Shown here one piece after another: positions 3,582 to 43,272 of a stretch of 44,715 nucleotides of DNA. The DNA comes from Shigella phage vB_SboD_StarDew: sequence record NC_073082; one strand, given 5' to 3'. The notes below the pieces were generated by a model. It was not told the origin of the DNA and made no database searches. It saw only the letters and a list, made by a program, of their open reading frames with translations. A program made the translations under genes and the position numbers. Position 1 is the stretch's first letter, and each line of letters begins with the position of its first letter.

Positions 3582-4668
3582 TCAATATATGGCGGATCGA
3601 ATGATTCGCCGTCACATCTTCACCCAGCGCCTGAGTAATGACCAGGCGCGGAGGGTGTTGGCTATGTGGGAGAAGTTCCGGCCCACGTTACTGGGTAAGC
3701 TGACCGAGTTGCTTGATGGTAAAAAGTCCATGAGCAACAAGGCGCTTACCACCCTGTTAACGCAACTCGACAAGACCGTCAAAACGGAACTGCGCACCGA
3801 GTTTAAGGTGCTGGCTGAAAGCCTTCAGGAGTTCGCCGACACCGAGGCCGATTATCTCGCCGACACATTAACGGCAGCGATCCAGCCGGTGGTCGCCGTA
3901 CCGGCGGTCGAGGTGGTTGGCGTAGTGACCGGCGCGCAGATCGCAGCAACGGCAATGAAAAACCCGTTCCAGGGCAATACCATGATGCAATGGCCCGACT
4001 CACTTTCTGAGTGGGCCAGGACGCAGATCGGTAATCAGGTGCGGGCGGGATTCATCCAGGGCAAGCCAACGATGGAAATTATCGCGGACGTGAGGCGCGC
4101 GCTAGGCGGTCGTAGTGCGCAAGCCATCTCAAGCGTTGTTAAGTCCGCAGTCAACCACTATGCGGCGACCGCCCGCGAACTAATGGTAAAAGCAAATGAC
4201 GATATTCTCGAAGGTCGCCAATGGTTATCTACATTGGACACGCATACTTCTCCCATGTGCCAGCTACGCGATCGCCTGTTTTATCCGGTTGATGTTACTC
4301 CCGATACGAAAGGGAAGCGAGGCGGAAAAGTGGTGGCGGGATCACAATATGGCGCTGGTCCGGGCAAGCTACATTATTGCTGCCGCTCGACGGAGACGTG
4401 GAAAGTCAAAGGTATGGAAGATTGGCCCAGTGGTAAGCGTCCGGCACTGAAGGCCGACGCAGGCAGATTGCTGAGTGAGCAGGTCGACGCGCAGACGGAT
4501 TTCTTCTCATGGGTGCAGCGCCAGCCGCGCCATATCCTGGAGGAATTATATGGAGTGCAACGCGCCGACCAGATTATGCGCGGCGTGAAAGTGCCGAAGA
4601 TGTTCACCGATTCCGGCGAACTAATGACTATCGAGCAGCTTAAAAACCGGGGGTTATGGCGTGATTAA
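3565..4668 (+). CDS. head morphogenesis / minor head protein (Mu F / SPP1 gp7-like position)
   Basis: 367 aa ORF overlapping portal stop; gene order terL-portal-minor head protein; call is positional. Confidence 0.55.
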   Translation: MAKTINQYMADRMIRRHIFTQRLSNDQARRVLAMWEKFRPTLLGKLTELLDGKKSMSNKALTTLLTQLDKTVKTELRTEFKVLAESLQEFADTEADYLADTLTAAIQPVVAVPAVEVVGVVTGAQIAATAMKNPFQGNTMMQWPDSLSEWARTQIGNQVRAGFIQGKPTMEIIADVRRALGGRSAQAISSVVKSAVNHYAATARELMVKANDDILEGRQWLSTLDTHTSPMCQLRDRLFYPVDVTPDTKGKRGGKVVAGSQYGAGPGKLHYCCRSTETWKVKGMEDWPSGKRPALKADAGRLLSEQVDAQTDFFSWVQRQPRHILEELYGVQRADQIMRGVKVPKMFTDSGELMTIEQLKNRGLWRD

Positions 4669-4990
4669 ATATGCAGCTATTGGACTGGTTATCGGTCTGG
4701 CGGTAGGATTCTGGCTAGGTGACTCCTATCGTGCTGGCGTAGTGGCGGAGGCGGCGCAAGAAGCGCAAGCCCAAGCCCAACGGCAGCAAACTAAAGTTGT
4801 CGAGCGCTCCGTGCAGGCCGAACAAGCCCGCGACGTAGAATACCGGACTATCACGAAAGAGGTTGTTAAATATGTTACGCGCCCTAACCGCCCTGATTGT
4901 AGTTTTGATGCTGAGCGCGTGCGGATCAAGCAACGCGCCGTTGATGCCGCTAACGGAGTCGGCACTGCGACCGCCGTGCAAGTTCGATAG
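4661..4990 (+). CDS. i-spanin (Rz-like): N-terminal TM helix plus Ala/Gln-rich coiled region; GTG start
   Basis: N-terminus MIKYAAIGLVIGLAVGFWLG is a single TM segment, followed by AEAAQEAQAQAQRQQ; overlapped in another frame by a lipoprotein ORF. Confidence 0.5.
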   Translation: MIKYAAIGLVIGLAVGFWLGDSYRAGVVAEAAQEAQAQAQRQQTKVVERSVQAEQARDVEYRTITKEVVKYVTRPNRPDCSFDAERVRIKQRAVDAANGVGTATAVQVR

Positions 4991-5116: not shown

Positions 5117-5881
5117 TTAGCGCGGAATACCGCAAATCTCGTTGAGAGTTTTCACATCCAGCGCCACCGCCGTGGATTTTGGCTTGTCCGGGTAAGGGAT
5201 GAATTGCTCAACTTCAGGCCATGCCTTAATCAGCTTCTTGTCAGTATTGTGCAGGTCCAGCACACCGGTAACGGTCAACTTGAACGCGTCATACTTAGCC
5301 CGCAATTCGCGGCGGGCCTTATCGTTACGGTCCAGGCGCTTGCAGAAATCGTGGTCCGCAGGGTAGTCTATGCGACCGCGTGGCTTATAGATCGGCAGCG
5401 ATTTTCCGTCCTCGTCCACTTCACACACCGAAGCCAGCATAACTTCCTCGAACCCCGGTACGATATCGCCGAGATCGGGAGATAGCTTATTCATGTATTT
5501 ATATTCCCAGTATCCTCGATGTACTCGGTATTGGTATCCGTCGCCGCTCAATGACAAGGTGCGAACGTTTCCGCCTGCGTTTATTTCGAAAGTGGCGTCG
5601 TAAACGCTGCCGATACCTTTTGGGCGGTCGGTGTTATAACTATACGTCGCCTTGTTGGTGTATACACAGACGCCGTACATCTGCGACGGGTCATCGCCGA
5701 TTGCTTCAATGCGCTCGAGTAGCTTGGCGAACGTGCGAATGCCTTCCGGCATACAGTCCAGCGTAATGGCATAAGCCAGGTCGCGCGAGTCCATCATGAT
5801 TTGTTTGGCTTCTGTCGCGATTTCGTGGTCGCGCAGGATGTTAGCCAGGATCTGATTTTTAATGTCTTTAGTAAGTCTCAT
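5117..5881 (-). CDS. hypothetical protein (254 aa), reverse-strand accessory gene (moron) inside head module
   Basis: Long ORF with GAGGA RBS 8 nt upstream of ATG at 5881; own promoter at 5911-5940; ORF track 5117..5926 trimmed to first ATG with RBS. No family recognised. Confidence 0.6.
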   Translation of the reverse strand: MRLTKDIKNQILANILRDHEIATEAKQIMMDSRDLAYAITLDCMPEGIRTFAKLLERIEAIGDDPSQMYGVCVYTNKATYSYNTDRPKGIGSVYDATFEINAGGNVRTLSLSGDGYQYRVHRGYWEYKYMNKLSPDLGDIVPGFEEVMLASVCEVDEDGKSLPIYKPRGRIDYPADHDFCKRLDRNDKARRELRAKYDAFKLTVTGVLDLHNTDKKLIKAWPEVEQFIPYPDKPKSTAVALDVKTLNEICGIPR

Positions 5882-5910: not shown

Positions 5911-5940
5911 AATATAATGCAACCAATACTCGGATTGCAA
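5911..5940 (-). promoter_or_regulatory. candidate promoter (minus strand): -35 TTGCAA, 18-bp spacer containing ATTGGTTGCA, -10 TATATT
   Basis: Read on reverse complement; same architecture recurs at 27247-27275 and 40008-40036. Confidence 0.45.
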
Positions 5941-26054: not shown

Positions 26055-26511
26055 TCTCGCTCATTATTTCAATTTGTGCGCTGCCGATGGGTGGCGCTTC
26101 GTCAAATATTATTAATTGCTGGCACTTGTTATTGCTCGGACCGACTTCGCCGGTGACGGCGTGAATGAATCTAATCCGCCAGTCCAGAAGAATTATCATA
26201 TTGGCGGTCCTCCGGGCCAGCTTCGCCCACTTCGTCGACGTGTCCTGATTCAGTAGCATGACGGTCCGACGTCCATGCGCTGCGCACTCGACCCACGGCA
26301 GCGGATCGGAATACGGCGGATTGCACCACTTCCACCCTTTCAACTCCGACCAGTCCGCATCGAGCGCGCTGTGCTCTGCCGTGAAGTAACGCGGCAGCAG
26401 GTGGTTGGCGTCGCTCGCCGCCATATCGTAACGGAATCGGTACTTCCGGCGCAGTGGTTTAAATAAAGCTGGCGGTGTGCGCCAGCTATCTTTTTGCTCA
26501 TTCTCCGTCAT
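26026..26511 (-). CDS. dam: DNA N6-adenine (or N4-cytosine) methyltransferase, phage Dam-like
   Basis: Motifs WRTPPALF and WKWCNPPYSDPLPW (amino-MTase catalytic NPPY); about 160 aa as in phage orphan Dam enzymes. Confidence 0.7.
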   Translation of the reverse strand: MTENEQKDSWRTPPALFKPLRRKYRFRYDMAASDANHLLPRYFTAEHSALDADWSELKGWKWCNPPYSDPLPWVECAAHGRRTVMLLNQDTSTKWAKLARRTANMIILLDWRIRFIHAVTGEVGPSNNKCQQLIIFDEAPPIGSAQIEIMSESELHEYLSR

Positions 26512-26956
26512 AGTCTGGATCTATCGCATACAGGGCGGTTTTCTTGCTGCTAGACAGCACACGTTGGACTCGGGATATCTCCGCCCTACTGAGCGGTCTG
26601 CTATCGGAATAGTAGCTGCCGTTTGCACGCCACGCTATACGCACCAGTCCTTCCCGCGGGATCGAAGACTGGCGGCCTTTGGGGCGCACGTACTCCTCCG
26701 CGCGTTTACAATGTTCACGCAACGCATCCGCCGTGACGCGGTTTAGCGCAACGCTGGTTGTGTATCCGGTGCGCTGCATAATCCCCATCAGTTCGAAAAG
26801 CAGTTCAAAGCGCTCCTCTAACTCCATGCGACGCTTTTCTTCCGTTTCATAGCTTGACAGGTAGGTATCCGCCAGCGCGTTGACGCGTTCGGCATGTTCG
26901 CGGGCTTCGAGGCATTGCGCGGCCCAGTAATCTTTCTCTTCTTGTAAAATTTTCAT
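26498..26956 (-). CDS. hypothetical protein (152 aa)
   Basis: ORF with GGAG RBS; stop abuts stop of upstream gene. Confidence 0.45.
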   Translation of the reverse strand: MKILQEEKDYWAAQCLEAREHAERVNALADTYLSSYETEEKRRMELEERFELLFELMGIMQRTGYTTSVALNRVTADALREHCKRAEEYVRPKGRQSSIPREGLVRIAWRANGSYYSDSRPLSRAEISRVQRVLSSSKKTALYAIDPDYDGE

Positions 26957-27199
26957 TTATTTAAGCTCCGTTGTGCGAATCTCATCGCGCGGGATAAATT
27001 TACCATCCATCTCAACCCAGCAGACACCATAGCGCCATTGGGTATTGCGTCCGGTTTGCTCGGGGTACACGGTATTGCATTCGTAGCGTTCCGTGTAGTA
27101 AATAGCCGCTGTAGGTACGCAAACACAAACGGCAATCATGAGGGTGAGGAGCACCCAAAATCGAAGGTCGCCGTCGTAGTCGAAAAATAATGATTTCAT
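26957..27199 (-). CDS. small membrane protein (one TM helix)
   Basis: Hydrophobic segment WVLLTLMIAVCVCVPTAAIYY; GGAGAC RBS before ATG at 27199; own promoter at 27247-27275. Confidence 0.45.
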   Translation of the reverse strand: MKSLFFDYDGDLRFWVLLTLMIAVCVCVPTAAIYYTERYECNTVYPEQTGRNTQWRYGVCWVEMDGKFIPRDEIRTTELK

Positions 27200-27246
27200 A
27201 TCACTGTCTCCGGGTATCAAAAAGGGCGTCCAAACCGGACACCCTC

Positions 27247-27275
27247 AATATAATGCAACCAATACGGTTATGCAA
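27247..27275 (-). promoter_or_regulatory. candidate promoter (minus strand): -35 TTGCAT, 17-bp spacer containing ATTGGTTGCA, -10 TATATT
   Basis: Read on reverse complement; 19-mer AATATAATGCAACCAATAC identical to 5911-5929. Confidence 0.45.
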
Positions 27276-27280
27276 CCAAT

Positions 27281-27604
27281 TTACGAATAAAAATTTGGGT
27301 CGCGCGCAACGTCTACCAGATACAGGTTACTAATGCGGTTGCCGTAATGGCCTGGTGTGCGTTGACGGCACACTACGGCATAGCCTGGAGGGATTGTATT
27401 GCCAGTCTCAATAATCCACGCCACGCGTGCGCCAGACAGCGTCTTGCCGTTGCATTCGATACGTGTTCCGCCATCGGCGGTGTTAAGGTTGCCGATCTTG
27501 CAGCCTGTGGATTTCAGGCGAATGACGCCGGTCTTGCTGTCGTAGGAAAAAAGCTGATTGGTCATTGCCACGGAAAAGTCGATGGCTTCGAATGTAGTAT
27601 TCAT
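27281..27604 (-). CDS. hypothetical protein with degenerate HNH/AP2-like endonuclease signature
   Basis: Pattern SYDSKTGVIRLK...ARVAWIIETG...NRISNLYLV resembles HNH homing-endonuclease layout but lacks canonical catalytic His; GAGGAA RBS. Confidence 0.35.
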   Translation of the reverse strand: MNTTFEAIDFSVAMTNQLFSYDSKTGVIRLKSTGCKIGNLNTADGGTRIECNGKTLSGARVAWIIETGNTIPPGYAVVCRQRTPGHYGNRISNLYLVDVARDPNFYS

Positions 27605-30197: not shown

Positions 30198-30476
30198 CTA
30201 TGCGACCAATTCAGCAACCAATAAATCACAGTCGGCGATGTTGTCGATAACGCGAACGTCCGCACCGCGGCGGGCCATTCGCTCATGTTCACGTACCTGG
30301 TGCGGCTTCGGTTTTCCTCCTGGGCGCTTCACTTCGACGAACACTATTTTGCCGTTGATGATGATAATCAGGTCTGGCGCACCTGCGCGCCCCTCCCAGG
30401 CCATTTTGCGGCAGAATCCGCCTACCTCTTTCACCCGTCGCATCAGGTGACTTTGAATCTTTCCTTCTGGTGTCAT
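30198..30476 (-). CDS. VRR-NUC domain nuclease
   Basis: PD-(D/E)xK core APDLIIIINGKIVFVEVKRPGGK; ATGA overlap with polymerase stop. Confidence 0.65.
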   Translation of the reverse strand: MTPEGKIQSHLMRRVKEVGGFCRKMAWEGRAGAPDLIIIINGKIVFVEVKRPGGKPKPHQVREHERMARRGADVRVIDNIADCDLLVAELVA

Positions 30477-36925: not shown

Positions 36926-37255
36926 ATGAATGTAAATGACGCAATCGAAATGTTAACGAAGACTGTTAGCAGTGAAACACGCCGGTCATGGGCTTATACC
37001 GATGCCGTGGGGGCGGTGTTATTTGAAATCGAACGACTGCGCAGTGTCGAAAAAGAATTACGCGCCAGGCTGGAATTGCTCAACGGCACGGCAGCAAGCA
37101 AGCTGCAAAAGCACAATGAAGAAATGGAAGAATACAAAAAACAGGTTATCCGTTTGCGCGCCGAGGGCAAATCCTGGGCGATGATTGCCGAGTTGACCGG
37201 AATTAATCAGAGCACAGTGCGCTCCTGGGTACGCAATAATAAAACTTCTAAGTAA
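36926..37255 (+). CDS. HTH DNA-binding protein (candidate transcriptional regulator)
   Basis: C-terminal helix-turn-helix-like segment GKSWAMIAELTGINQSTVRSWV; GAGGG RBS; first rightward gene. Confidence 0.55.
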   Translation: MNVNDAIEMLTKTVSSETRRSWAYTDAVGAVLFEIERLRSVEKELRARLELLNGTAASKLQKHNEEMEEYKKQVIRLRAEGKSWAMIAELTGINQSTVRSWVRNNKTSK

Positions 37256-37265
37256 GGCCGCGGCA

Positions 37266-39530
37266 ATGAGCTTAATTAAATTCGCTGTAACACGACCCGC
37301 TAAAAAAGGCGAAAAAGCCAGGGCGGAAAACTTCCAGATGACTACCGAAGAGTTTTTCGAATTTATCAATGATGCGAAAGAAATCTCCTCGGTGCATATC
37401 AACAAAACGGAAGATAAAGCGGAGTATGCACGCCGCAAGCGTAAGGCCGATGGCATTGTGGCTTATACCAGTGACGGCTTACGTCGCAAGACCAGTGCGG
37501 TGGACCGCTCGATCCTGTTCTTCGATATTGACCGTACTGACACCCGCACCCTACGCCGCTGCCGTAAGGCGTTCATCGACGCGGGACTGGAACACGTATT
37601 TCACACCACAACCGGCGACCGCCACCCGCTGAAAGGCGGCACGCGTTGCGCTCGATTCCTGGTACTCACGGACAAGCCTGTACCAGCTGAAGACCTGGGC
37701 CGTGTCCAGTATGCGCTATTACACCAACTGGGCCTGTCAGATGTGGACTTCGACGACTGCACGAAAGACACAAACCGCCTTATGTACCTGCCACACCAGC
37801 AGTCTGTTATTAAGTGCCACTATGGCAAGCGCGCCCGCGTCCGTCGTCTGCTCCGCCTGGCTGACAAGCTGGGAGTGGAAAAAGAGGAAGTTCGCCGCGA
37901 ACTGACCCAGGGCGACGACGCAGTGGCAGACGGCATTCTGGACTGGTGCTTCCAGGCAGGATTCGAGGAGTTATCTTCCGGTCGGGGTTATGAAGTGCCG
38001 TGCCCGAACGAACATCTGCACAGCGGCGAAGGGTCGACGGCTATCATGGTCAAGGATGGCGAGATCCGTTTCAAGTGTATGCACACCGGCAACGAGTGTT
38101 GCTCGGAGCTGAACAGACACCAACACCTGGCGCTGCGTCTTATCGGCATACCGGACCACCTCAACGTCGAGCCACACAATATGTCCCGTAAGCAAATCGC
38201 CGCCATCCTTCCGGGGCTGGACGACGAGGAAGTGGAATCCTTATACGAACATATTGTTGATGCAGTTGGCGACGGCGAAGAATACGGCGTGTGCACCGAT
38301 GCGGACCTGGATAACGAGCTGGTTGCGCTGTTCAGTAAGCACGACCCGATCATCGAGGGGTTGATTAACTTTAAATCGACCTGGTACATGGCTGGCGAGT
38401 CGAATATCGGTAAGTCTTTCTACGTGCTGGGCCAGATGGGAGCGGTTGCCGCCGGTATTCCGTTTGGTGGCGCGAAGGTCGTCCAGTCTCATTGCTTCTA
38501 TTTCGACGCGGAAGGTGGCGAAGCCTCCAACCAGCGTAAAGAAGCATTGCAGATTAAATACGAGCACGACCTGGACAAGCTGCACATTATAGACCTGCAG
38601 TCACGCGGCTGGGATATCACCAGCAAATCAGGCTTGCGCGAAGTTATCAGCTTTATCAACCGCACCGCTAACGGCGAACCGGTTGGCCTGGTGGCGTTCG
38701 ACTCACTCAACCAGACGGTTGCGTTGCGGTCCGCTGATGCTAAACCGTTCGACGAGAACAACGCCAGCGATATGGGTGAAGTGGTCAAAGCGCTGAAGGC
38801 CATCGCGGAAAATACAGGTGGCAGTGCGGGCGTCATCCACCACCCGGCTAAAGGTGCAAACGGCAGCAGAACGCCACGCGGGTCCGGTGCGCTGCATGGT
38901 GCTGTCGATTCTGCGTTCTTCCTGGAACAGCCGGACGACAACCAGCCCGGACAATTGAACCTGTATCACGAAAAGTCACGTAACGGCATCAAGCAAGCGC
39001 CGCGCGGCTTCGTCCTGCTCAAGTGCAAGGTGAAGGTGGATCTCCGCAAGTCAGAAGCGTTCGAGGCGCACCAGTCCACCAGCACCGGGCCAGACTTCGG
39101 CGACGTGGTTGCCGGATGGGACGTCAAGCCGATTGCCTCCACGCCACGCGACGAGACTCTCTACCTCGTACCGGTTGCCCTGGCACCGTTCGCTATTGAA
39201 CAGGCGAAGGCCGCGGGCAAAGCAGCAGTTAAAGAAGAGAACACCGCCGGACCGCGCAACGAAAAAGAGAAAGTGCTCTATGCGGCACTGGAAAAACTGA
39301 TGGAAGATAACCCGGACCATACTGGATTCAGTAAATCGGCAATTGTCCGCCAGGCTGGGCTGGCAAAAGGTGGCACTTCGACGAAGGCAATCGACGATAT
39401 GGTGGAGCGCGGGGTGATAGGTTTTTACACCGATCCGCACACCGGGGCCATCTATGGGTCGTCTAATTTGGTCATCAAATCGGATATACCCATCACGCTT
39501 TCAGCGACCGATGACGATTTAAAAGATTAA
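37266..39530 (+). CDS. DNA primase/helicase-like replication protein (prim-pol-like N-terminus, Cys/His cluster, RecA-like ATPase domain)
   Basis: ILFFDIDR acidic motif, Cys/His cluster CPNEHLHSGEGS...FKCMHTGNECC, Walker A MAGESNIGKS and Walker B-like LVAFDSLN. Confidence 0.65.
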   Translation: MSLIKFAVTRPAKKGEKARAENFQMTTEEFFEFINDAKEISSVHINKTEDKAEYARRKRKADGIVAYTSDGLRRKTSAVDRSILFFDIDRTDTRTLRRCRKAFIDAGLEHVFHTTTGDRHPLKGGTRCARFLVLTDKPVPAEDLGRVQYALLHQLGLSDVDFDDCTKDTNRLMYLPHQQSVIKCHYGKRARVRRLLRLADKLGVEKEEVRRELTQGDDAVADGILDWCFQAGFEELSSGRGYEVPCPNEHLHSGEGSTAIMVKDGEIRFKCMHTGNECCSELNRHQHLALRLIGIPDHLNVEPHNMSRKQIAAILPGLDDEEVESLYEHIVDAVGDGEEYGVCTDADLDNELVALFSKHDPIIEGLINFKSTWYMAGESNIGKSFYVLGQMGAVAAGIPFGGAKVVQSHCFYFDAEGGEASNQRKEALQIKYEHDLDKLHIIDLQSRGWDITSKSGLREVISFINRTANGEPVGLVAFDSLNQTVALRSADAKPFDENNASDMGEVVKALKAIAENTGGSAGVIHHPAKGANGSRTPRGSGALHGAVDSAFFLEQPDDNQPGQLNLYHEKSRNGIKQAPRGFVLLKCKVKVDLRKSEAFEAHQSTSTGPDFGDVVAGWDVKPIASTPRDETLYLVPVALAPFAIEQAKAAGKAAVKEENTAGPRNEKEKVLYAALEKLMEDNPDHTGFSKSAIVRQAGLAKGGTSTKAIDDMVERGVIGFYTDPHTGAIYGSSNLVIKSDIPITLSATDDDLKD

Positions 39531-39607
39531 ATTTTGCGCGCATTGGTCGCCGTTATGGGAATCCCCATATCGGTAAAAGATTAAATTTTGCGCGCATTGG
39601 TTGCCAT
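39521..39607 (+). repeat. pair of 31-nt direct repeats (AAAAGATTAAATTTTGCGCGCATTGGT(C/T)GCC) separated by 25 bp
   Basis: Read directly; first copy overlaps primase stop codon; each copy contains an ATTGGT(C/T)GCC element. Confidence 0.85.
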
Positions 39608-39659
39608 TTTGCGTGCTTTTAGCCGGTCGTATTGGTTGCCGTGTAGTGTAAATATAATG

Positions 39660-39848
39660 AATAGTTATGCAGTTTTATTGCATAAAGTAAGCGGGACAAA
39701 AAGCGGGACAGACCAGGGGCGGGACAAAGCGGGACAGCACCCCTGTCCCGCCCCGGATGACGCGGCCTGGCGAGGAGCGGGACAGCGGGACAGCACCCCA
39801 GTCTTTCAGACTAGACGGGGGGTCTGGCACCCCCCTCGTCTGAGACTG
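39660..39848. repeat. iteron/hairpin array B, near-duplicate of array A
   Basis: Shares GGGACAAAAAGCGGGAC, GGGGCGGGACAAAGCGGGACAGCACCCCTGTCCC and the 49-50 nt hairpin with array A. Confidence 0.85.
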
Positions 39849-40007
39849 CATAAAATCCAGGATTGCATAACGCACGGCAACATGATGCAAATTGCGGTCG
39901 TCGATGATCTAGGCAACCAATGCGAGTTGCAGAATGGTGGGTGAGAAATGCAGTTTGCAGTCACAGCAGATAGCGATCAACTTTTTCATACGCGTGATTA
40001 ATATTGG

Positions 40008-40036
40008 TTGCACCCACCCTGGCACCCTGCTATATT
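40008..40036 (+). promoter_or_regulatory. candidate promoter: -35 TTGCAC within ATTGGTTGCA, 17-bp spacer, -10 TATATT, conserved leader
   Basis: Leader TATATTGGTTGCACACCAACA...GAGGAC nearly identical to the reverse complement of 5890-5916. Confidence 0.45.
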
Positions 40037-40064
40037 GGTTGCACACCAACATGAGGACTGAACA

Positions 40065-40370
40065 ATGAAAGCATTAATCTGGAATTACACAATGGCGGTG
40101 GCGAAGCTGTATGAAGCGAAGCACACAGACGGCAACGCAGACGACGCTCGCCAGGTTGTCATCCTGGCCCGGCAGGGAATCATGGACGCGTTCGACGATA
40201 TGTTTGCCAGCCTGGACGAACTGGAACCGCTGCGCGTGGCAATCTGCGAATATGCGAGGGCATTTGCCCGTGAGCGCCTGGCGTATCGCTTCGGGATCGG
40301 AGAGACGGCAGCGACAAACGTCGCCCGGATTAAAGCCCAGCGCGAGCTATTCGCCCAGCTTGCGAAATAA
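40065..40370 (+). CDS. hypothetical protein (101 aa)
   Basis: GAGGA RBS; first gene downstream of promoter at 40008-40036. Confidence 0.5.
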   Translation: MKALIWNYTMAVAKLYEAKHTDGNADDARQVVILARQGIMDAFDDMFASLDELEPLRVAICEYARAFARERLAYRFGIGETAATNVARIKAQRELFAQLAK

Positions 40371-40379
40371 GGGGCCAAA

Positions 40380-40649
40380 ATGGACCGCAGACGCGCAAAA
40401 CGCCTTTCATGGCGTATTCCACTGCATTGCATACGAATATGGGCTAAGAATGCGAATGAGGGCGATTCTGTGTTCTGGTGCTATCGCGACGATGTGAAGC
40501 CATTAACGCAGACTCGCTATCTGCACCAGTTCGCCAGGGGGCATGGGCTTGCCATAAAAACGTCCTTGCAACCAATTGGCATCCGTATTACATTACGCCG
40601 GAAGCCCGCAGTCGAGCGGGTAGGCAAACACTGGAGACTGAGCAAATGA
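40380..40649 (+). CDS. hypothetical basic protein (89 aa)
   Basis: AAGGGG RBS 6 nt upstream of ATG; alternative-frame ORFs overlap, so coding frame uncertain. Confidence 0.35.
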   Translation: MDRRRAKRLSWRIPLHCIRIWAKNANEGDSVFWCYRDDVKPLTQTRYLHQFARGHGLAIKTSLQPIGIRITLRRKPAVERVGKHWRLSK

Positions 40650-40789
40650 CACCAGCACTAATGGCGGGATTCTCGCAGAAGTTTATTTCTGTTGATGCCT
40701 GCATAGCAGATTATGAGATGGACGGCATCGCTACGGTGTGCGATGGCGACACGAAAACGGCCGATGAGACTGAGGAGACAGAACAATGA
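40646..40789 (+). CDS. small acidic ORF (47 aa), ATGA-coupled to neighbours
   Basis: GGAG RBS 9 nt upstream; start overlaps upstream stop, stop overlaps downstream start. Confidence 0.35.
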   Translation: MTPALMAGFSQKFISVDACIADYEMDGIATVCDGDTKTADETEETEQ

Positions 40790-41343
40790 AATTACTATTC
40801 CGCCGCAAATCGGACGGGCGCATACTGCAGCCGATACAGACCCTGGACGCATACGTTCGCCTACACCACGCCGCAAGCGATCGGGTCTGGTGGGCAAAGA
40901 AGGACAAGCTGCCAGAAAACTTCGATATTGTCACGCATGATATAGCGCGCGGAGATATGCTGCGTGATATTCGCGACGGTAGTATGTGGATCGTTGAATA
41001 TGTCGGTCTTCATGGCCTGCGTATGCAATCCCGCAAGGATGGCGTAGCAGGTATGACTTACTTCGGGCTGGTCAACTACGAGCGAGTGGGCCGCAAATAC
41101 AGCCTGCGCGACCGCCAACCGCATGAGCGCGTTGAGTTACGCAAGACCCAACACGCCTACGCAACCTACGACGCCCACCAGGTGCAAGCGAAGATGGGAC
41201 GCGCCGTACACCAAATCGTCAATCGCTTTGATGCCGTGACGAATGCGCAACGCCATGCGCAGGAATACGGCGTTGGATTCATCCGGGTCGAACGTGACGG
41301 CAGCATGAAAGCCATCGACCCGCGCTCGGTGATTCTGAAATGA
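40786..41343 (+). CDS. hypothetical protein (185 aa)
   Basis: ORF with ATGA overlaps on both sides. Confidence 0.5.
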   Translation: MKLLFRRKSDGRILQPIQTLDAYVRLHHAASDRVWWAKKDKLPENFDIVTHDIARGDMLRDIRDGSMWIVEYVGLHGLRMQSRKDGVAGMTYFGLVNYERVGRKYSLRDRQPHERVELRKTQHAYATYDAHQVQAKMGRAVHQIVNRFDAVTNAQRHAQEYGVGFIRVERDGSMKAIDPRSVILK

Positions 41344-41480
41344 GTGCAACGATCCGTGATATGCTTCAGCATAACCGCTTTGAGATAGGCGGTCGGGTAT
41401 TTCGCAATTACTTCGTGGCGCGTGCATGGGCGCGCCATATTGGCAAACCGGAAGGGGCAATTCGATGCTACACGATGTGA
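41340..41480 (+). CDS. small ORF (46 aa), possibly not a real gene
   Basis: Translated by hand: MSATIRDMLQHNRFEIGGRVFRNYFVARAWARHIGKPEGAIRCYTM; ATGA overlap with upstream gene. Confidence 0.3.
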   Translation: MSATIRDMLQHNRFEIGGRVFRNYFVARAWARHIGKPEGAIRCYTM

Positions 41481-41752
41481 TTTATTGGTTTGGTTTGATC
41501 TGCGGGCTGTGCCTGCTTACCGCGGTGTTGTTGGGCGTCCTGATGTTCGTAGTATGGCCCGCGGTGGAAGCCGCCAGCATCACCCGCATGACGTTCGAGG
41601 TATACAAGCGCCGTGGAATCACGGAGCACCCGACCAGGTTGCGCATGTGGTGGCTGTGGTATCGGGATATGATAGGCGGGCGAACATTCGAAGCCGTCCG
41701 ATCATCCGGGTGGGAGTGGAAAGGCGTCGGCAAGTGGTCCATTTTCGATTAA
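41465..41752 (+). CDS. small membrane protein (one TM helix)
   Basis: Hydrophobic IYWFGLICGLCLLTAVLLGVLMFVVW; GGAAGGGG RBS; followed by terminator. Confidence 0.45.
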   Translation: MLHDVIYWFGLICGLCLLTAVLLGVLMFVVWPAVEAASITRMTFEVYKRRGITEHPTRLRMWWLWYRDMIGGRTFEAVRSSGWEWKGVGKWSIFD

Positions 41753-41769
41753 TTATGCAAGCGTGATAT

Positions 41770-41805
41770 AGTCCCAGTGAGCTAAAACTTACTGGGACTT
41801 TTTTT
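41770..41805 (+). terminator. rho-independent terminator (GTCCCAGT-12 nt loop-ACTGGGAC + T7) ending 1 nt before the holin start codon
   Basis: Read directly. Confidence 0.6.
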
Positions 41806-42096
41806 ATGGATAAGCTAAACGAGTGGCTATTCGCCCTGGCATGTCTGGCTGGTGGATTCGTAGGCGCACGCATTCATGGTGAGGCTACGAAAGGACCGCT
41901 AAACTTCGTTTTATATATCGTGGTGGGCTTCTTGTGCGCCGTTTTTGGTGCGCCAGCTATTGCCGAGTGGGCTGGCTTATCGGGGGAGCGCACTGTCGCT
42001 GGTTTGGGCTTCGTAACCGCAATCTTCTGGATGCCAATAGCCGCCCGGATCAGGGAGACTATTGAGTCGTTCCGACTTCCGGGGGGCGCAAAATGA
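41806..42096 (+). CDS. holin (three predicted TM segments)
   Basis: 96 aa with three hydrophobic segments and charged C-terminus; upstream of a second small membrane protein and the endolysin. Confidence 0.6.
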   Translation: MDKLNEWLFALACLAGGFVGARIHGEATKGPLNFVLYIVVGFLCAVFGAPAIAEWAGLSGERTVAGLGFVTAIFWMPIAARIRETIESFRLPGGAK

Positions 42097-43245: not shown

Positions 43246-43272
43246 AAGCCCGCCGTATTGGCGGGCTTTTTA
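43246..43272 (+). terminator. rho-independent terminator (AGCCCGCC-gtatt-GGCGGGCT + TTTTT)
   Basis: Read directly. Confidence 0.65.

Follow-up and report, generated by a model that had tools for sequence, protein, structure and literature searches.

Shigella phage vB_SboD_StarDew (sequence record NC_073082) carries six small, tightly packed genes on the plus strand between its replication and lysis modules. We analyzed this block within a 44,715-nucleotide (nt) stretch, hereafter the window, whose positions are used throughout. The 2 kb around the block (39900–41900) matches 156 phage records at 80–95% identity, nearly all of them Escherichia phages of the genus Dhillonvirus, among them SECphi18, SSL-2009a and two BASEL phages, KarlBarth and GeorgBuechner. 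The window is a Dhillonvirus genome, that of a virulent E. coli siphovirus, and its map of open reading frames (ORFs) fits a complete genome of about 44.7 kb. A previous sequence-only reading of this DNA had placed ORFs of 101, 89, 47, 185, 46 and 95 amino acids (aa) at the locus, and we found all six at the positions it gave: g1 (40065–40370), g2 (40380–40649), g3 (40646–40789), g4 (40786–41343), g5 (41340–41480) and g6 (41465–41752). GenBank labels each of them 'hypothetical protein' and the region is annotated differently across records, with the KarlBarth record annotating precisely these six.

To determine which of the possible frames are coding, we aligned the region from 12 relatives, to which we refer by L numbers, giving 13 genomes with the window. 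All six genes showed an excess of third-position substitutions; for codon positions 1/2/3 the counts were 10/13/72 in g5, 91/90/228 in g2 and 279/173/620 in g4. None of the six frames was interrupted by a stop codon, apart from a single stop in the g3 slot where the relatives carry different cassettes, and the other two frames contained 9–122 stops. Pairwise ratios of nonsynonymous to synonymous divergence (dN/dS), computed from 10–16 sequences, were 0.50 for g1, 0.17 for g2, 0.18 for g3, 0.23 for g4, 0.08 for g5 and 0.18 for g6, compared to 0.05–0.12 for the flanking primase, holins and lysin. These patterns of substitution indicate that all six ORFs are genuine protein-coding genes. The substitutions and stops also identified the frames in use between 40380 and 40790, a point on which the sequence-only reading had sought confirmation: the g2 frame runs to 40649 and the g3 frame takes over from the ATG at 40646. 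Two overlapping frames, one of 128 aa (40111–40497) and one GTG-started of 103 aa (40478–40789), were ruled out by stops in relatives, those in the 103-aa frame falling over the g2 region. We also treated as non-coding an upstream 44-aa ORF, g0 (39934–40068), which is annotated in some relatives and would be ATGA-coupled to g1; its substitutions showed no periodicity (43/46/53), two relatives have lost its ATG, and part of its sequence coincides with the promoter described below. A 118-aa ORF at 39588–39944, in a repeat-rich region, showed an anti-coding pattern in its frame.

The six genes were previously thought to be linked throughout by ATGA-type stop-start overlaps. This held for g2/g3, g3/g4 and g4/g5, but not for the outer junctions: g1 and g2 are separated by a 9-nt spacer (TAA-GGGGCCAAA-ATG) that contains AAGGGG, and g5 and g6 overlap by 16 nt. 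Purine-rich ribosome-binding sites precede g1, g2, g3, g4 and g6. The Shine-Dalgarno sequence of g1, GAGGA (40053–40057, plus strand), lies 7 nt before the ATG and is kept in 12 of the 13 genomes, reading GAGGG in L006. Because g5 has no Shine-Dalgarno sequence of its own, its translation would depend on coupling to g4 through the ATGA, and the tight packing at all five junctions suggests that translation of g3 through g6 is probably coupled.

Upstream of g1, a predicted promoter occupies 40003–40043 on the plus strand. Two ATTGGTTGCA motifs (40003–40012 and 40034–40043) frame its –35 and –10 elements, which consist of TTGCAC (40008–40013), a 17-nt spacer and an extended –10, TG-n-TATATT (hexamer at 40031–40036). 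Both motif copies are invariant in the 13 genomes and T-A---T of the –10 is kept, while the intervening spacer varies, the pattern expected for a genuine promoter. With conserved hexamers, 17-nt spacing and a variable spacer, the element has the predicted makeup of a sigma-70-like, host-type promoter.

The motif recurs across the window, with 13 ATTGGTTGCA-like occurrences observed and 3.7 expected. They are often paired and found at promoter-like intergenic sites, and at five sites the TTGCA part of the motif lies 17–18 nt upstream of a TAnnnT –10. Several sites of this geometry precede other genes. The Nmad5 gene (5117–5881, minus strand; Pfam E = 7e-59) is preceded by the same TATATTGGTTGCACACCAACA...GAGGAC...ATG promoter and 5' untranslated cassette as the block. 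The excess of motifs, their geometry at other sites and the Nmad5 cassette together bear out the proposal that the promoter predicted for the block belongs to a recurrent family. ATTGGTTGCA itself may serve as an extended –35 element or as an operator. The individual sites are 5913–5927 (minus), 22023 (minus), 25353/25356, 27263–27280 (minus), 30210–30222 (minus), 36729 (plus), 39596/39631 (plus) and 40003/40034 (plus). A 109-aa protein encoded at 36926–37255 has a helix-turn-helix (HTH) domain resembling sigma-70 region 4 (Pfam E = 2e-6 to 2e-7), and might, speculatively, be one candidate for binding the motif.

At its other end the block is closed by a strong and nearly invariant intrinsic terminator at 41770–41805 (plus strand), just before the holin as had been claimed. 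It consists of a 12-bp stem (41770–41799) with a 6-nt loop and a run of seven T residues, has a folding energy of –23.4 kcal/mol (z = –5.6), and directly abuts the holin ATG at 41806. The stem is invariant in the 13 genomes, with changes confined to the loop. This hairpin (41770–41799) is the sole strong plus-strand terminator in 40065–41805, none being internal to the block. Lying between a promoter and a terminator about 1.75 kb apart, with no other strong terminator among them, the six genes are predicted to form a single transcription unit.

Around this terminator, positions 41735–41815 are nearly invariant in the 13 genomes. An extended –10-like sequence, TGATATAGT (41764–41772), overlaps the first bases of the terminator stem, and the only Shine-Dalgarno-like sequence for the holin, GGGA, is located in the 3' arm of that stem. 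One idea is that transcripts started upstream would terminate and hide the holin Shine-Dalgarno sequence, and that those initiated within the hairpin would avoid both effects. A similar arrangement of –10-like TATAAA, hairpin, T-run and holin start is found in Jerseyvirus Ent1, where terminators are annotated on both sides of the holin-holin-endolysin genes, giving the same terminator-then-holin layout. As TGATATAGT occurs once in the window and is not significant alone, we keep this promoter-in-terminator idea as a note.

We then asked how widely the six genes are distributed, using tblastn against 50,697 phage records. Homologs were found in 155 records for g1, 155 for g2, 154 for g4 (with identity down to 41%) and 150 for g5 (all at least 87% identical); g3 was patchy, in 87 records. 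g6 was present in about 151 Dhillonvirus records and, at about 40% identity, in 318 records from Jerseyvirus, Kagunavirus, Peatvirus and Erwinia phages. A g4 profile searched against 1.84 billion representative proteins returned 23 matches, mostly fragments of its own family plus one spurious plant B3 protein. These counts indicate that five of the genes, each present in essentially every Dhillonvirus record (150–155 of about 156), form part of the genus core and are essentially restricted to Dhillonvirus.

The genes of the block diverge at different rates. Protein identity to the relatives was 56–94% for g1, 66–85% for g4 and 57–98% for g3 where present, compared to mostly 94–100% for the flanking primase, holins and lysin (89% for the primase in L011). 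Relative to the flanking primase, holin and lysin, nonsynonymous divergence (dN) was about ten-fold faster in g1 and about five-fold faster in g4. In one pairwise comparison with the complete SM_S22 genome, 39900–41400 was the third most divergent stretch, exceeded by the receptor-binding/tail-fiber locus and by a left-arm region holding a homolog of anti-Tmn, discussed below; g5 and g6 fall outside the highly divergent stretch. By their dN/dS, g2 and g5 are under strong purifying selection.

The g3 position is a swap slot, at which small cassettes have been exchanged and the borders of the exchange are copies of a junction sequence of 16 nt. This junction repeat, GGAGACTGAGCAAATG (40633–40648), combines the end of g2 (WRLSK), the Shine-Dalgarno sequence of the next gene and the ATGA overlap; in full, the end of g2 and the start of the following gene read GGAGACTGAGCAAATGA, which encodes ...WRLSK-stop, a GGAG ribosome-binding site and the overlapping ATG. 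The g3/g4 junction, GGAGACAGAACAATG (40774–40788), is a relative of this repeat that is one base shorter. In relatives the 16-mer is present twice, bracketing alternative or added small genes. Across the relatives the slot is empty, replaced or extended. In L006, g3 is deleted exactly between the junctions and g2 is joined to g4 at the repeat. In L012 the slot (1268–1612) holds a 114-aa paralog of the SH3-like barrel of g4 (phrog_10243, E = 6e-11); the C-terminus of this paralog (TWRLRK) comes from the junction sequence that also encodes the g2 end.

Further small-gene inserts occur before g1 (L011 and SM_S22) and between g3 and g4 (L007), and a gene for a 33-aa hydrophobic peptide lies between g5 and g6 in 5 of the 12 aligned relatives (L001, L003, L006, L007 and L009). 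This peptide, MLYVFAVVCGGSLAALVLLASVISLVKYLWGRL, corresponds to a 98-nt insert at about position 41470 of the window (L001 region 4626–4745). It is absent from the window, where g6 starts at the codon that starts the peptide in those five relatives. Database matches gave no function for the optional cassettes.

Profile searches were run on all six proteins, and structure models of g1 and g4 were examined. Each matched, over its full length, a PHROG family of unknown function (phrog_9839 for g1, phrog_12533 for g2, phrog_15977 for g3, phrog_13628 for g5 and phrog_2531 for g6), and the earlier statement that none shows a recognizable motif still stands, with no significant Pfam, NCBIfam, PADLOC or PDB sequence match for any of them. 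PDB sequence searches gave nothing or merely compositional transmembrane matches; PHROG, Pfam, NCBIfam and PADLOC profiles gave no enzyme-family match; PADLOC defense profiles gave no match at E ≤ 1; and no structural PHROG or Pfam family was matched. We infer that the six are not structural proteins and that g6 alone is a weak candidate for a lysis function.

The individual proteins differ markedly. AlphaFold2 (AF2) modeled g1 as a four-helix bundle with a predicted local distance difference test score (pLDDT) of 95.9. The N-terminus of helix 1, the C-terminus of helix 3 and helix 4 are conserved, and the divergence is concentrated in a hypervariable region around helix 2 (residues 15–62; dN 0.60, dS 0.88) that looks more like an exchange of old alleles than like point-wise positive selection. 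Fold searches with g1 returned generic bundle matches only. A weak Pfam signal and a Dodd-Egan-like pattern had raised the possibility that g1 is an HTH DNA-binding protein, which the AF2 bundle and the fold searches rule out. g2 is very basic (isoelectric point, pI, 11.5), has 93% mean column identity across relatives and begins with an invariant arginine-rich N-terminus, MxRRRAK.LSW. g3 is acidic (pI 4.05) with an acidic C-terminal tail. The model of g4 (pI 10.0) has an N-terminal beta region with an SH3/Tudor-like barrel (residues ~46–103), a linker that varies and in some cases carries a 20-aa insert, and a conserved module at the C-terminus made of a helix and a beta-hairpin (~129–185), all at low confidence (pLDDT 56). 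In this low-confidence model the barrel resembles Tudor/KOW/SH3-like modules such as those of CarD, the UvrD/PcrA C-terminal domain, the Mfd RID and the NusG/Spt5 KOW domains, but sequence identity to them is 0–12%, there is no Pfam match and the SH3-like fold class is very common. A distant relative of the C-terminal domain, P0179, lies on a short contig with uninformative genomic context. g5 (pI 10.8) is the most conserved gene of the block.

g6 encodes a putative membrane protein with a single N-terminal transmembrane helix (hydropathy maximum 2.85 at residues 12–30) and a C-terminal domain with many Trp and Arg residues; from the distribution of charges its topology is predicted to be N-out/C-in. 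Its start at 41465 is backed by the alignment and by the upstream GGAAGGGG. The relationship to PHROG 2531 and the gp57 family of Jerseyvirus Ent1 is one of true homology, with about 40% identity over residues 27–95, the same N-terminal transmembrane helix and the common motifs WP.VEA.S..R and GR.F.A...W.GVG.W. The homologs sit in varied surroundings: in Ent1, within a cluster of small genes that follows the lysis cassette and includes NinH-like and DUF2737 genes; in a Jersey-like contig, immediately ahead of the terminase gene; and in Peatvirus PEAT2, beside a Cas4-like nuclease gene and far from the lysis genes. These differing positions indicate that the adjacency of g6 to the holin in the window is not a conserved linkage.

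As had been proposed, the block lies between replication and lysis modules, with the primase/helicase gene on one side and the holins on the other. Packaging, head and tail genes occupy the plus strand up to ~24.1 kb and are followed by a leftward replication arm up to ~36.3 kb. The remaining rightward unit comprises the 109-aa HTH protein, a 754-aa primase/helicase (37266–39530), the six small genes, two holins, an endolysin, a Big_2 protein and a calcineurin-like phosphoesterase. Between the primase/helicase gene and the block lie 534 nt of repeat-rich non-coding DNA (39531–40064).

A familiar region of similar design is the nin region of lambdoid phages (ninA–ninI), which lies between the replication genes O and P and the late regulator Q with the lysis genes, and consists of small, tightly packed ORFs with ATGA-type overlaps, mostly non-enzymatic and of unknown function, with terminators at its border. 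The block resembles it in its position between replication and lysis/late genes, its run of small overlapping ORFs and its border terminator, but differs in having no Q-like gene, its own promoter, a swap slot with junction repeats and a virulent phage as its carrier. The location of the Ent1 g6 homolog among NinH-like and DUF2737 genes also favors a nin-like reading. The hyperplastic early regions of virulent coliphages, such as T4-type early small-gene regions and the class I genes of T7, share with the block their small ORFans, host-type promoters, rapid divergence and cassette gain and loss between short repeated boundary sequences; unlike in those regions, five of the six genes here are genus core, and the exchange repeat is a Shine-Dalgarno-spacer-ATGA junction rather than a promoter or stem-loop element. 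In position and packing, lambda nin is the closest analog, and in behavior the block resembles the hyperplastic early regions of virulent phages.

Our preferred explanation, in which we have moderate confidence, is that the block is an early or middle operon, a functional counterpart of lambda nin or of other phage early small-gene regions, that encodes non-enzymatic binding proteins. One early or middle mRNA would deliver these small proteins in fixed proportions: a four-helix bundle (g1), an acidic peptide (g3), a membrane-anchored protein (g6) and three very basic proteins (g2, g4 and g5) that may bind nucleic acid or RNA polymerase. They would most likely bind host or phage macromolecules and so re-program the infected cell, with g1 and g4 acting at a fast-evolving interface and g2 and g5 serving a conserved, possibly phage-internal, target. 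We infer early or middle timing from two features: the promoter is of host type and also precedes Nmad5, a DNA-modification gene, and a terminator sets the block apart from the lysis genes. That g2 and g5 are conserved as core genes points to targets that are themselves conserved, and the variability of g1, g3 and g4 to an interface under pressure.

Several observations weigh against this explanation. A generic promoter scan did not call the promoter of the block, because its –35 agrees with the consensus at only 3 of 6 positions. The comparison with lambda nin would rest on position and packing alone, with no Nin homology: none of the six proteins matched NinB, NinE, NinF, NinG, NinH or DUF2737 in Pfam at E ≤ 1. 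The low confidence of the g4 model makes its fold assignment merely a lead. In the literature on SECphi18, the BASEL phages and Dhillonvirus we found no function, expression or phenotype for any of the six genes, and homologs were absent among the 24 proteins detected in lysates in the sole Dhillonvirus proteome study, that of EE09, whose sensitivity was low, with only four phage proteins seen in infected cells. Finally, the core conservation of five genes suits essential phage-internal roles equally well as host takeover. A search of the literature for a Dhillonvirus transcriptome found none.

Phage-internal roles of this kind are the substance of a first alternative, in which one or more of the basic core proteins g2, g4 and g5 would control the switch to lysis and late expression, for example by allowing RNA polymerase to read through the terminators, or would act as accessory replication factors at the upstream repeat-rich region. 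The lysis cassette (two holins, endolysin and the Big_2-domain protein) is flanked by strong terminators at 41770–41805 and 43246–43268, and no sigma-70-like promoter was called on the plus strand between them, so something must bring RNA polymerase in. The position of the block, just upstream of an invariant terminator and a holin, mirrors the nin-Q-pR'-tR'-S order of lambda. Core conservation, the high pI and invariant arginine-rich N-terminus of g2, the candidate origin just upstream with its six conserved CGGGACA repeats, and the resemblance of the modeled g4 barrel to RNA-polymerase-binding Tudor/KOW modules would all suit such regulators. However, none of the proteins is homologous to known antiterminators or late activators, SH3-like barrels are generic and confidence in the g4 model is low, the terminator-holin layout also occurs in Jerseyvirus with other genes upstream, and the conserved TGATATAGT overlapping the hairpin could give the lysis genes an independent promoter. 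We regard phage-internal regulation as unlikely, though worth serious consideration.

The sequence-only reading had instead suggested host takeover or anti-defense, a proposal that is supported in part. It is favored by the small non-enzymatic ORFans in a sigma-70-driven unit right behind the primase/helicase gene, the fast divergence of g1 and g4, the high rank of 39900–41400 in divergence from SM_S22 and the turnover of cassettes. Against it stand the core status of five genes and the purifying selection on g2 and g5, which point to core functions of the genus rather than to patchy accessory anti-defense genes, and the mapping of known immunity-related proteins elsewhere; among the known anti-defense proteins that could be compared, none resembled any of the six. 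Two small Dhillonvirus proteins have experimentally established interactions with host immunity: anti-Tmn, ORF35 of SM_S22 (PMC11846954), and the 74-aa Ksap1 of SECphi18, encoded between methyltransferase and phosphatase genes (PMC11564622). The window encodes a 152-aa homolog of the former at 26498–26956 (minus strand), 77% identical to SM_S22 CDS0035; the latter probably corresponds to the published anti-Tmn, provided that ORF numbering equals GenBank CDS numbering, as it does for Nmad5. The surrounding stretch (26400–27300) is among the parts of the genome most divergent from SM_S22. Like the genes of the block, anti-Tmn and Ksap1 are small and genus-restricted, and the anti-Tmn region is similarly divergent; unlike them, they belong to the leftward replication arm. 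We could thus rule out that the block contains either gene, in the case of Ksap1 by its described location alone, and anti-Tmn showed no sequence similarity to g1. Other SECphi18 escape mutations lie in the portal, SSB and DNA polymerase genes.

In its strongest form, this second alternative holds that the block is a dedicated anti-defense cassette in which all six proteins, or at least g1, g3 and g4, inhibit bacterial immune systems. Small, fast-diverging ORFans (with the high dN/dS of g1 and the low minimum identity of g4), a level of divergence like that around the anti-Tmn homolog, the gain and loss of cassettes at junctions, and the fold of g1, a compact helical bundle with one variable helix as in many protein inhibitors, would all fit. 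Set against these are the presence of five of the six genes in ~150–155 of 156 records, the strong conservation of g2 and g5, the lack of similarity to anti-Tmn, and the mapping of SECphi18 and SM phage escape or trigger loci elsewhere. A dedicated cassette of this kind seems to us improbable. Given the core conservation and the left-arm location of the immunity genes, host takeover or anti-defense remains a plausible and reasonable prior rather than a result.

More far-reaching versions of both alternatives can be put forward. g2 or g4 might be a new transcription factor that passes both terminators, in which case the block would hold the early-to-late switch of Dhillonvirus, and, separately, g1 and g4 might be new host-interface inhibitors swapped via the 16-nt repeat. 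We consider these proposals doubtful, and somewhat more so than the simpler forms above.

A less likely alternative still is that g6, together with the optional 33-aa membrane peptide of the relatives, works with the lysis cassette or in superinfection exclusion and not with the early block. The g6 protein spans the membrane once and is encoded directly before the holins, in Jersey-like phages its homologs are found no more than ~1.5 kb from the endolysin, its Trp/Arg-rich C-terminal domain may be like membrane-active peptides, and the extra hydrophobic gene appears at the same spot in relatives. But a strong terminator separates g6 from the holin, g6 is coupled to g5, and the PEAT2 homolog lies next to a nuclease gene far from any lysis gene. 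Nor did g6 have the features of a holin, antiholin or spanin: it has no lipobox and no second transmembrane helix, its charges would put the C-terminal domain in the cytoplasm, and its PHROG family is labeled unknown, not lysis, while its neighbors match holin families. The last possibility, that chance accounts for some of the small ORFs (those of 47 and 46 aa) or that the true genes of 40380–40790 lie in other frames, might be raised by the overlapping 128-aa and 103-aa ORFs and the varying GenBank annotation, but is essentially refuted by the evolutionary signature, in which codon-position pattern and absence of stops identify g2, g3 and g5 as the frames in use, many stops interrupt the alternative frames in relatives, and g5 combines its very low dN/dS with at least 87% identity in 150 records.

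The block is best described as a clearly bounded group of 'known unknowns', a phage feature of an ordinary kind and not a surprising one. Its genes and PHROG families were already in databases as unknowns, and an early small-gene block is familiar in phages; what our analysis adds is the coding status and frames, the boundaries of the operon, the separation of core genes from a swap slot with its junction repeat, the fold of g1 and the exclusion of several identities. Dhillonviruses are common E. coli phages that serve as models of bacterial immunity (SECphi18; BASEL Bas14-18) and are considered for therapy. Should g1 and g4 work at the host interface, differences in host range or defense sensitivity might be traced to them; should read-through into the lysis and late genes be under the control of g2, g4 or g5, these proteins would determine how late genes are timed in the genus. 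The junction-repeat slot would be a natural insertion site for engineered payloads.

Two further observations concern the surroundings of the block and the reach of the g6 family. An Rfam scan of the whole window gave no match. The non-coding region at 39531–40064 resembles structured non-coding DNA; it may act as an origin of replication or as a control region. It carries six direct repeats and one inverted copy of GCGGGACA, mostly kept across the 13 genomes with variable spacers; three copies and one inverted copy of ATTGGTYGCC; an AT-rich stretch; and GC-rich hairpins showing compensating changes. A 38-nt direct repeat is present in two copies (39520–39557 and 39574–39611). ORFs annotated within this region in some records, such as gp06 and gp07 of SECphi18, are probably spurious. 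The sole match for the g6 family in the genome collection was L019, an 18,987-bp scaffold of a Taishania pollutisoli assembly (NZ_JACVEL010000022.1). A 10-kb stretch of this scaffold has a Jersey-like gene order (HslV-like peptidase, holin, endolysin, small genes, g6 homolog, terminase, portal) and is probably phage DNA within, or contaminating, that assembly.

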